Origin: Octopus vulgaris
Lineage: Eukaryota
DNA: 64,000 nt
Reading direction: 5' to 3'
Assembly (NCBI GenBank): GCA_951406725.2
Contig: OX597838.1
Span: 27,776,001 to 27,840,000, forward strand
Shown here: positions 4,882-64,000 of the stretch, piece by piece
Layout: every line of letters begins with the position of its first letter
Position numbering within the stretch: position 1 is the stretch's first letter
Program-made: the position numbers and the translations under genes
The notes under the pieces: generated by a model
Databases searched by the model: none
Seen by the model: the letters and a program-made list of their open reading frames with translations, nothing else
Told to the model about the DNA's origin: nothing

Positions 4882-7800
4882 CTGCAAGATGTAAAATATA
4901 TATACTTATATGCACATACATACACACAATAAATATACATACGCATAAATAAATAAATATATATATATATATATATATATATATATATATATATATATAT
5001 GTAATATATATGTAATATATGTATATATATATATATATGTAATATATTAGGGAATAACAAGTATTCCAGGTTATCAGGAAGTTTACTATTTTACACTTTT
5101 CTAATGAAATCTAAAAAATATATATATATATAATATTGTTATTACAAATTTGGGATATTTACCAATAGATAAGCAACTCCTATTTCAGGATAACCTCATG
5201 GAATGGTATACGCAGAGAAAATTACATCAAATAAAATAATTAAAATAACATCAAATAAAATTAGTTAAATAATTATATCCTATCCGTTATTAATCAATAG
5301 GGAAAGAAGGTAGTACAAGTATTTGCTACACATGTTTCTGCACTGGTGGGGTGTGTATTAAGGCTATACTTAATACATAAATCCACCAATGCATCCTCAG
5401 GCTATGTATATTATTATTATTATTATGTACAGGTAAAAGTTGAAAATTAAAAGTTAAAAATCATATTAAAAATAAAAATTACAAATATATTTTTTTAAAT
5501 ATTAAATACCTAGAGTACAATTAAGATATATATTGGAAATGCTCTACCTAAGGAAATTATTAACGATTAAATTAGAAACATATCAAATCTTATAATATAT
5601 CTAAATAAATATTATAGAAATTAATAATTTAGTGTAAAATATACCCCTGTCAATACTGATATAATAAAACATATTCTATGTCAAATGTGAATTAATAGTC
5701 TAGAATAAAGATTAATTAGTAAATACAACTACTTACATTAGCAACTTAGTGAACAAAAGTAGCAAAACAAAGTAAAAAGGTAGATTACTTTATGACATAA
5801 GGTTTAATCCTGCTAGTTCAAGTGCAAATATGTTTTTAAATATATTTGTTAAGAAGGGCATCCAGCTTGGCGTTAGGAAGGGCATCCAGCTGTAGAAACA
5901 CTGCCAGATCAGACTGGGGCCTGGTGCAGCCTTCTGGCTTCCCAGATCCCCGGTCAAACCGTCCAATCCATGCTAGCATGGAGAACGGACGTTAAACGAT
6001 GATAATGATGATGATGATGATGATTTGTAATTTTTATTTTTAATATGATTTTTAACTTTTAATTCCTAACTTTTACCCGTACATAATAATACTTTCACTA
6101 AAATAACCATGATAGCACCATCACTACCAGCAACAACAGCAACAACAATGGCTGGCACCCTATCGGTTAGCAGGGCAAGGGTTCCAGTTCATCCAATCAA
6201 CAGAACAACCTACTCATGAAATTAACGAGCAAGCCCACAGACATGTGTACCCTTAATGTAGTTCACAGGGAGATTCAGCGTGACACAGAATGTGACAAGG
6301 ATGGCCTTTTTGAATTACAAGTACAATTCATTTTTGAGTTGAATGGAGCACTGTGAAATAAAGTGTCTTGCTCAAAAGCACAATTTTCCACCAAGAATTG
6401 AACTCACAACTTTATGATCAGGAGCTGAATGCCCTAACCATTAAGCTACATGCCGTCACACACCAACAACGACAACAACAACAATAGCAGTGCGTCATGA
6501 AACTGCTTTAAGAGCTTACGGCAGCAAGTTGGCAAAAACGTTAGCACGCCGGGCGAAATGCTTAGTAGTATTTCGTCTGCCACTATGTTCTGAGTTCAAA
6601 TTCTGCCAAGGTCGACTTTGCCTTTCACCCTTTCGGGATCGATAAATTAAGTACCAGTTATGCACTGGGGTCGATGTAATCGACTTAATCCCTTAGTCTG
6701 TCCTTGTTTATCCTCTCTGTGTTTAGCCCCTTGTGGACAATAAAGAAATAAGAAACTGTTTTAAGAGCTTACCGCCATTTCCTGAAGCGCAAATAACAAT
6801 CACCCATGAGACAAGCAAGGCCCAGATTGGACGAGAGAGGAGTTCGTAGGATGTTGTTTGAGCATTTGTCCAGACTATTGGATCATCTGTTTTATACATA
6901 GTGTATTTTATGTAACAAATCACCATGGAGATAGCCAACGTGATAAACCAACCGAATGAGAGGTAGAGCTGCAGAAATGGTAGAATGAAAAAATATTGAA
7001 GAAAATGAAAAATATAAGGTAAAAAAAAAAAGAAAGAAAATGAGAGAAAAAAATATAAAAAGGATGAAAGGAAACAAGAAAAGTGAGAGAGGGGGGAGGA
7101 AAAGGGTTGTAAAGATTTGAGAGAAGGAGTGAAAGAGGAAGAGAGAGGGGGGAAAGTGAGAGGATTGTGTGTGGAGGAGAAAATTGAGGGTGGTACATGA
7201 GGAAGAGAGAGAAGTGGGGAGGAAGGAACATGGAGAACTGAGCGAGGGGGAGAGACAGGGAGAGAGGGAGGAAAACAGAGAATGCTGGAGAAATGGAGAG
7301 AGAGAGAGAAGGATGAAACTTTGAAGTCCCTGTCAACATATTCTTGTTAAAGAATAAATATATACTCTACAGAAAGTATTGAGTGATCTTTTTTTTAATG
7401 TATAATTGTTTTATTACAACTTGACATAAAAACAAACATTGATGTGTGTGTGTGTGTGTGTGTGTGTGTAATGGACAGGTGCAGGAGAAGTTCTATGAGC
7501 AGAATATGGGTCTTGTCCAGGCATTCATTGATTTAACCAAGGCCTTTGATACTGTGAATAGGGCCTTGCTATGGAAAATACTTGGCAAACTTGGATGTCC
7601 GGATCACTTTGTATCTATAATTAAATCATTTCATGATGGGATGGAGCCTTGGGTCAATGTTGGTAGTGGCATGGCAGGACCCATTCCTGTAGAGAATGGT
7701 GTCAAGCAGGGTGACATCCTTGCCCCGACTCTCGTTTCTTTGCCCTTTGCTGTTGCCTTTACTCATGCTTTTGCCAAGGTTAGCTCTCTAGGAATATATG

Positions 7801-62290: not shown

Positions 62291-64000
62291 ACTATTATAG
62301 ACCCTTGTTTACATCATTAATGAGAACCTTTTCCCATATAACAATGCTAGGTAGGGGGGTCTCTGAAAGGGGTTGCAGGGAGTAGCATCCCTGCATTCCT
62401 GAGATGGTTTTCCACCACATTACTTAAAAATCGTGGTAGAGGCACTGATCTCAGGACCAATCACGTCTAGAATCTGAGGTTGGTGGTAAGCAAGGGCATG
62501 CTCCCCATAGAAAATCCAGCTCCAAGAAAGCCTCATAAATATATATATACACATATATATATATATATGTATATATATGCAGCACGAAGCTTTGTCAGTG
62601 AACAGTTCGCGGTCTCAAAGCGATGAAAATATTTTAACAAATTAAATTTAAGTGTTGAAGTGAATCTAACGATTTTGTGTGTTTCTTAAATGGCTTATAA
62701 ACACCTTCCACGCTGCAACTGTTTATATATATATATATATATATATATATATATATATAGAGAGAGAGAGAGAGAGAGAGAGAGAGAGAGAGACAGACAG
62801 AAATATAAATATATATATGTTTATATATATATATGTATGTATGTATGTATATATATAAATTTCTAAGTCTCTCAACATGTGGGGGTAATATAGAATTAAG
62901 CATCTAGTTGGGTTAACTGGGATAACGTTGACTAAAGTATTTAGTAGGGTAAACTGGGGTAATGTAGAATTAAGTTTTTTTTTAAAAAGGTGAAAGGGTG
63001 AACTGGGGTAAGGTGAAATAAAGCATTTAGAAGGTGATCTGGGGTCAAGTTGTCTAAAGTGTTCAATTCGCTGAACTTGGGTAAAGTGGAATTAATGGGC
63101 TCCAGGAGCAGAAATGATAACAAATACACCAAACTGGAATTTGAATTCTTGATCTTTGTCCCCCGCTCCTCATGCAATAAGTTTAATATCTTAACCCACT
63201 CAGCTATCTGGTCTCCACTAAACTCCCCTCTAGAAAACCCTTTCCACTACTAAAAATATAAAGATAAAAAAATTTTCAAAAAGAAAAAAAAAGCATCAAT
63301 GAAGGCGATGATCGAAGGACTCCTTTGATGATAACATCCTTTGCTGTAAGCACACAGATTTGTTTTGTTTTATATCATCATCATCATCATCATCATTTAG
63401 CATCCGTTTTCCATGCTAGCATGGGTTGGACGGTTTAACTGGGGTCTGTGAAGCCAGAAGGCTTCATCAGGCCCAGTCAGATTTGGCAGTGTTTCTACGG
63501 CTGGATGCCCTTCCTAACGCCAACCACTCCGCGAGTATAGTGGGTGTTTTTTACGTGCCACCTGCACAGGTGCCAGACAGAGCTGGCACAACGGCCACGA
63601 ACGGATGGTGCTTTTACGTGTCACCGGCACGGGACCAGGCGATGCTGGCAACGGAGACAAACGGATGGTGCTTTTACGTGCCAGACAGAGCTGGCAAACG
63701 GCCATGAACGGACGGTGCTTTTACGTGTCACCGGCACGGGGGCCAGCCGAGGCTGGTAACGAACATGAACGGATGGTGCTTTTACGTCTTTTTACTTGTT
63801 TCAGTCATTTGACTGTGGCCATGCTGGAGCACCGCCTTTAGTCGAGCAAATCGACCCCAGGACTTATTATTTGTAAGCCTTGTACTTATACTATTGGTCC
63901 GTTCTGCCGAAATTCTAAGTTACAGGGGCATAAACACACCCGCATCAGTTATCATGCGATGTTGGGGGTACAAACACAGACACACAAACATATACACAGA

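Follow-up and report, generated by a model that had tools for sequence, protein, structure and literature searches.

The window analysed here is a stretch of 64,000 nt from Octopus vulgaris (contig OX597838.1, positions 27,776,001 to 27,840,000, forward strand; 2.8-Gb genome). It carries copies of five families of repeat elements, designated A to E, each with a type I hammerhead ribozyme motif, and most of them appear to be ends of Penelope-like elements (PLEs). We found that the base pair between core positions 3 and 8 of these motifs has been swapped repeatedly and yet has remained paired, probably as a result of selection, acting on the source elements, for a fold that cleaves itself slowly. 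Positions 3 and 8 form a tertiary pair, which is a feature of the catalytically active hammerhead conformation.

We scanned the window with a type I hammerhead descriptor in which positions 3 and 8 were unconstrained. Three complete motifs were obtained, all of them paired at 3-8: UUGAUAA at 60822 (+), UUGAAAA at 57801 (−) and GUGAACA at 61308 (+), the last with one additional G following A9. When helix I was required to be at least 5 bp long, none of 40 block-wise dinucleotide shuffles of the window matched the descriptor. Dropping the G12 requirement added the family B motif at 15172 (−), while the motifs of B at 15320 (+), A at 5400 (−) and E at 62598 (+) were located by motif search and family alignment (Table 1). 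An Rfam scan of the window gave no hammerhead family among the best 150 of 261 matches. At the family level, all five families have a complete type I core (U4 G5 A6, A9, G12 A13 A14, A15.1-U16.1 and H17) and three helices with helix I open, and self-cleavage after position 17 is predicted for them.

The original prediction, made from the letters of the window, had placed type I hammerheads in five dissimilar elements, all of them fold-backs, with C3-G8, U3-A8 (twice, in unrelated sequence) and G3-C8 cores. The motifs and the cores were both confirmed in the family alignments, and all five elements belong to high-copy families with hundreds to thousands of search candidates each in the genome. 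Fold-back structure was observed for B, C and D and for one E copy (61110-61432); the window copy of A and the other E copy (62598) each consist of a single arm. The hammerheads are intact at the three sites matched by the full descriptor, with helix I of 7 bp, helix II of 2 bp and a 6-nt palindromic helix III in the case of D. Those in the A and B copies are damaged: helix I of A is weak and its palindrome imperfect, and G12 of B is replaced by A in the minus arm and deleted in the plus arm, although most family B relatives keep it.

Every family is characterised by one fixed 3-8 pair. Among distinct aligned arms, sampled in order of similarity to the window copy (itself included), the pair is C-G in 24 of 30 arms of family A and 42 of 43 of family B, U-A in 24 of 26 arms of C and in all 30 of D, and G-C in 62 of 65 arms of E. 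Selecting E copies by their 3′ part alone gave a similar result, 21 of 22 readable cores being G3-C8 (30 loci; 8 without a core match). The family consensus is canonical (C3-G8) in A and B and non-canonical in C, D and E; for these three the earlier proposal that non-canonical cores are family-wide, and not products of decay, is upheld.

To follow positions 3 and 8 across the genome, we used patterns with position 8 free, limited to one helix III sequence and a G10.1-C11.1 pair. With a purine at position 3, there were 1464 matches compared to 7 for a reversed control; the first 100 listed comprised 88 A-U, 5 G-C and 7 unpaired or wobble cases by hand count, and a script check of the first 30 gave 26, 1 and 3, respectively. 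With a pyrimidine at position 3, there were 3607 matches compared to 4 for the control; the first 100 listed comprised 83 U-A, 9 C-G, 6 U·G and 2 unpaired cases (hand count), and the first 30 contained 23 U-A and 7 C-G, all seven of the latter from one array. Paired bases are far commoner than mismatched ones among the first 100 listed for both patterns. When the helix III sequence of a G3-C8 pattern was changed, 189 matches were obtained (76 for the control), and a second G3-C8 lineage came to light; its endonuclease is roughly 30-65% identical to that of D. All four Watson-Crick 3-8 pairs occur in this genome, A3-U8 families having been added by these patterns. An attempted census with a strict descriptor in 40 random 10-kb stretches yielded four motifs (three U-A, one C-G) against 0.8 per shuffle, which was too few. 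CpG decay was considered as the source of the difference between A3-U8 and G3-C8 and was rejected, as neither position lies within a CpG.

The relatives of family D form an alignable clade. A tree of these D-like elements was constructed from the endonuclease and the 3′ untranslated region, with the ribozyme excluded, using 23 of 53 candidate rows (family D thinned to four; two row pairs are duplicates). The U-A, G-C and A-U groups in it are well supported, a single A-U row falls inside the G-C group, and three changes are needed; more copies of the nested A-U type turn up among the purine-3 matches. In this clade, the 3-8 pair changed at least three times, both positions each time. We also aligned 26 distinct motifs over 44 columns. 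Positions 3 and 8 are paired in all 26 (12 A-U, 10 G-C, 4 U-A), two-sided changes occur in all six helix I pairs, and slid controls drop to 21-38% pairing; the motifs were picked from pattern matches, and kinship among the rows inflates the counts and the shuffle test. The suggestion that positions 3 and 8 covary is borne out by the patterns, the tree and this alignment alike, and the repeated paired swaps make it likely that the folded core is under selection in the source elements.

Some further motifs were noted on the way. The two arms of a single fold-back insertion (L331 and L394; G000:C1, about 7.828 Mb) differ in their cores, one being U3-A8 and the other A3-U8. Further hammerhead families with U3-A8 or C3-G8 lie in flanks (L078, L160, L130, L015, L097, L157, L392, L408), and L130 contains two hammerheads in direct orientation at a distance of 535 nt, of which one is C3-A8.

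At position 17, G was found in 2 of 190 motifs obtained with that position free. The G3-C8 motifs have U17 in family E and A17 in the D-like lineage, and C17 in only 1 of 73. This avoidance of C17 is consistent with a remark, made with data not shown, that G3-C8 hammerheads work worse with C17 (PMC3884650), as would be expected from a G3-C17 trap; it comes from two lineages that have a 12-nt word in common and are maybe not independent. A general rule that position 17 does not pair with position 3 was rejected, as one U3-A8 subfamily has A17 (9 of 23 U-A rows). The 12-nt word is exact between E (L200) and the D-like G3-C8 lineage (L304, L325), and spans helix I and the core. As the proteins of the two are distant, a ribozyme module was possibly captured between them.

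Regarding the nature of the elements, the hammerheads had been assigned to PLE-type retroelements, and this assignment is supported by linked PLE open reading frames (ORFs) and by the insertion anatomy. Reverse transcriptase (RT) followed by a C-terminal GIY-YIG endonuclease was found upstream of the hammerhead in the A, B, D and E group (for A, the endonuclease alone), and inverted 5′-truncated copies, one-sided tails and (TA)n targets are present in the same group. Judged from these features, A, B, D and E are 5′-truncated ends of ORF-bearing, endonuclease-encoding (EN+) PLEs, often inverted. Two parts of the original prediction did not survive. All five elements had been described as non-autonomous, but in A, B, D and E the long copies extend into PLE ORFs with GIY-YIG; these four families are not retrozymes, because their ORFs run continuously upstream of the repeat, and the non-autonomous, retrozyme-type description holds for the ORF-less head-to-tail family C only. 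The association of fold-backs with (TA)n was indeed seen, but it is the ordinary anatomy of PLE insertions (Craig et al., 2021, PMC8557442).

The window copy of family A is 85% identical over 886 nt to the long copy L261, and its relatives L123, L128 and L137 have about 1.8 kb in common, containing a Hydra-type endonuclease. This endonuclease lies upstream in the long A copies and is the only PLE protein domain identified for A. In family B, the arms of the inverted repeat I3 are 97% complementary; the minus arm (14888..15254) is 96.6% identical to L260, where RT and endonuclease ORFs precede the hammerhead. The RT of B is 39% identical to that of L265, an element with a CxCX5C linker, while the linker of B itself is atypical. 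A and B would accordingly be of the Hydra type, a placement made by likeness of endonuclease and RT.

The window copy of family D retains a CX4CxxC linker and a GIY-YIG remnant (at about 58343-57924, interrupted by a stop), and its plus arm (58404..58545) begins within helix III without the 5′ half of the hammerhead. Relatives of D have RT (Pfam RVT_1, E 2.4e-8), the CX4CxxC linker and an endonuclease, for which the GIY-YIG match is weak and under the Pfam cut-off. These linker and endonuclease motifs make D appear Neptune-like.

In the case of family E, 40 random 10-kb stretches contained nine arms from about six insertions, which as a rough estimate suggests tens of thousands of copies in the genome. 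Most E copies are just 140-200 nt long, and at least 40 copies of one subfamily are identical over 68 nt. In the long E copies L200 and L252-L254, the ORF upstream of the hammerhead has RT motifs (identified by eye), a CX3CxxC linker and GIY-YIG-type motifs. A 46-aa match connects it to the RT of D, from which the E protein is otherwise distant. Two RT-side pieces of this ORF gave no Pfam match, and a protein search with it returned 30 relatives, none carrying a clade name. Close to hammerhead E on its upstream side, at the point where most copies start, a sequence resembling a branch point and splice acceptor was observed (L200:1505-1530 and window 61283-61300); a 12-nt stretch in it is complementary to the 3′ end of E.

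Family C is different. Its hammerhead belongs to a unit repeated with a period of 361 nt, and the sequence upstream is the unit's own tail in 25 of 38 5′ landmarks. A sister family, C2, has full dimers 360 nt apart and no linked ORF. We did not find an ORF-bearing parent in 60 loci of C or in 30 loci of C2; the few PLE protein matches near these loci are not linked to the unit. With ORF-less head-to-tail units of 150-450 nt and a type I hammerhead, C has the anatomy of a retrozyme lacking long terminal repeats (non-LTR retrozyme), as far as sequence can tell. A further family with tandem units of about 359 nt has canonical C3-G8 hammerheads (L410-L416; G000:C1, about 20.00 Mb); no blastn match to family C was obtained among the copies tried. 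Motifs similar to those of this further family, but U3-A8 and spaced 358 nt apart, occur in L403 and L404.

We propose the following scheme. On a tandem or read-through transcript, the palindromic helix III would pair between two copies, possibly aided by the element's protein. Slow cleavage would trim some transcripts to unit length, and would give circles in the case of family C, while the insertion template would be RNA that is uncut or re-joined. With both strands of a (TA)n target nicked by the protein and priming taking place at two positions on the RNA, the product would be a fold-back with a tail on one arm, and inserted copies would then decay neutrally. Several published observations are in line with this scheme. 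Minimal PLE hammerheads cleave weakly and as dimers only (PMC4209133). The hammerhead of a lizard PLE requires the protein of the element for cutting and is partially rescued by C3G/G8C; both target strands are cut and extended, and the tail is made by two RT start sites (PMC11167929). In our data, 34 of 46 E arms have the whole core and just one starts within 3 nt of the cut site, which indicates that inserted copies derive from uncut or re-joined RNA.

A number of observations weigh against a role for cleavage. An excess of insertions beginning at the cut site was looked for in the 46 E arms and was not found. Energy minimisation did not return a hammerhead for the C or the D monomer; with two copies folded together, D forms a hammerhead dimer, E forms part of one and C does not form one. 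PLE insertion in vitro did not need hammerhead cleavage, and reads ending at the cut site were not seen in that study (PMC11167929). The genomic case has its own weak points: the independent swap events are few, about five (about three in one clade, one in E and one in the tandem units), and the family arm counts come from samples ranked by likeness to the window copy. In the D-like clade, helix II is merely 1-2 bp and the first helix I pair is lost in some subfamilies. Four of the six U3·G8 rows have one helix II type in common, and may represent a subfamily that propagated with a wobble at 3-8.

Some of these points would also fit a non-catalytic role of the fold, as an RT binding or stop signal or in RNA dimerisation, with the 3-8 pair being structural and cutting irrelevant. 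Such a role would explain why 28 of 46 E arms begin 41-62 nt upstream of the cut site, the tolerance of insertion in vitro to loss of cleavage, the spread of the 68-nt-identical E subfamily with a G3-C8 core that is partly active only, and the possible U3·G8 subfamily. However, the 3-8 pair belongs to the catalytically active conformation, G17 is nearly absent, and C17 is rare in G3-C8 motifs, as expected from a G3-C17 trap. We regard a non-catalytic role as a serious but less probable alternative to selection for slow cleavage. That all five families are non-autonomous and spread as small circular RNAs is improbable. The anatomy of C and C2, with ORF-less units of about 360 nt and full dimers in C2, does fit, and the short E unit may move alone, given the length of most E copies. 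But as a general statement it is refuted by the ORFs linked to A, B, D and E, including the endonuclease remnant of D in the window itself, and fold-backs are normal PLE insertions (PMC8557442). Still more remote is that the cores were swapped by chance, the changes becoming fixed in source elements that were dead or neutral. Independent events are few, and after insertion positions 3 and 8 decay like any others; against this, all family-level changes restore a pair, save the one possible wobble, and helix I has been rewritten with compensation while the core stays constant. Selection for a slowly self-cleaving fold remains the explanation that we favour. A more specific version of it, which we put forward tentatively and think rather doubtful as a whole, is that the four 3-8 pairs act as a natural dial of cleavage rate in active PLE lineages that need an uncut template, with the G3-C8 lineages additionally shifting position 17 off C, and that these family-wide natural G3-C8 and A3-U8 hammerheads are unreported and are missed by CUGANGA searches.

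Much of the setting is already published, namely PLE hammerheads, U3-A8 cores, inverted copies, (TA)n targeting and partial rescue by the engineered C3G/G8C. Natural U3-A8 hammerheads were described by Perreault et al. (2011, PMC3088659) and were reported for PLEs in 2014 by Cervera and de la Pena (PMC4209133). The PLE hammerheads in the latter work resemble ours in their terminal-repeat location, small palindromic helix III, extra nucleotide after A9, opposite-strand motif pairs 100-700 bp apart and a U3-A8 variant with about 1,300 matches in Schistosoma. In the parts of its text available, U3-A8 is the sole core covariation named, whereas here G3-C8 and A3-U8 are family-wide and the pair changes along one clade. 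The Neptune- and Hydra-type EN+ PLEs of Craig et al. (2021) are similar in the C-terminal GIY-YIG, the linker cysteine motifs, the (TA)n targets and the inverted 5′-truncated copies with a tail on one end; the Hydra and Chlamys hammerheads seen in their supplementary table S2 are all C3-G8, unlike those of C, D and E. Animal non-LTR retrozymes are thought to be PLE-derived (Cervera and de la Pena, 2020, PMC7229834; Li, Clavereau and Pollet, 2026, bioRxiv 10.64898/2026.07.22.740005), and like C they are head-to-tail repeats with a type I hammerhead and no ORF, the units measuring 150-450 nt. C and C2 differ from them in having U3-A8 and mostly PLE-style fold-backs with partial tandems, and are known here from DNA. 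The C3G/G8C swap of Frangieh et al. (2024, PMC11167929; reviewed in PMC8495972) is the same as that in our G3-C8 motifs and has partial activity, but it is a laboratory mutant there, while two PLE lineages of this genome have it as their natural state. A literature search for natural family-wide G3-C8 or A3-U8, of incomplete coverage so that an earlier report is possible, found only the engineered G3-C8.

Hammerheads in PLEs are poor cutters, and insertion in vitro proceeded without cleavage. The repeated exchange of both partners in a tertiary pair of the active core provides genomic evidence for a selected, active-like fold, and the sister families provide natural matched constructs with U-A, G-C, A-U and C-G. 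CUGANGA-based annotation would overlook thousands of motifs in this genome.

Table 1. Hammerhead-bearing elements and other features of the window (positions within the 64,000-nt stretch)
Feature	Position	Strand	Details
Family A element, predicted 5′-truncated 3′ end of a Hydra-type PLE	5043..5829	−	single arm ending in (TA)n; from likeness to L261
Hammerhead A, canonical C3-G8	5322..5405	−	C3 at 5400, G12 at 5338, A17 at 5327; long helix II
Family B arm with tail, predicted Hydra-type PLE end, hammerhead C3-G8	14888..15254	−	C3 at 15172, C17 at 15100
Family B inverted arm, hammerhead C3-G8	15255..15440	+	C3 at 15320, C17 at 15391; inverted repeat I3
Family D element, predicted 5′-truncated Neptune-like PLE, then 3′ repeat	57650..58405	−	from translation
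Hammerhead D, U3-A8	57769..57808	−	U3 at 57801, G12 at 57785, C17 at 57776
Family D inverted arm	58404..58545	+	inverted repeat I8
Family C fold-back, piece of ORF-less ~361-nt head-to-tail unit	60680..61066	+	minus arm 60680-60806; plus arm from 60805 with tail
Hammerhead C, U3-A8	60816..60858	+	U3 at 60822, G12 at 60843, C17 at 60852
Family E arm with tail, G3-C8 core	61110..61285	−	G3 at 61280; helix III damaged
Family E arm without tail, hammerhead G3-C8	61283..61432	+	G3 at 61308, G12 at 61335, U17 at 61344
Family E solo copy flanked by (TA)n tracts, G3-C8	62577..62725	+	G3 at 62598, U17 at 62634
Open frame	6726-7346	−	no Pfam match
Complex tandem repeat on an 8-nt unit	22578-24162		periods 63, 174, 490 nt
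Non-LTR retrotransposon ORF, C-terminal part	24889-25926	+	zf-RVT E 8.4e-5, under Pfam cut-off
281-codon open frame, possibly host exon	28250-29092	−	no Pfam match
Inverted repeat, like a miniature inverted-repeat transposable element (MITE)	40981-41545		184-nt arms; no hammerhead match
Weak Hydra-type RT remnant	44342-44553	+
Transposase-like remnant	48288-48917		no Pfam match
Loose U3-A8 hammerhead-like match, probably chance	51022	−	without palindromic helix III

Among the other features of the window, the end of the frame at 6726-7346 (−) resembles what we take to be a membrane acyltransferase exon, and the transposase-like remnant at 48288-48917 is presumably of the Tc1/mariner type.

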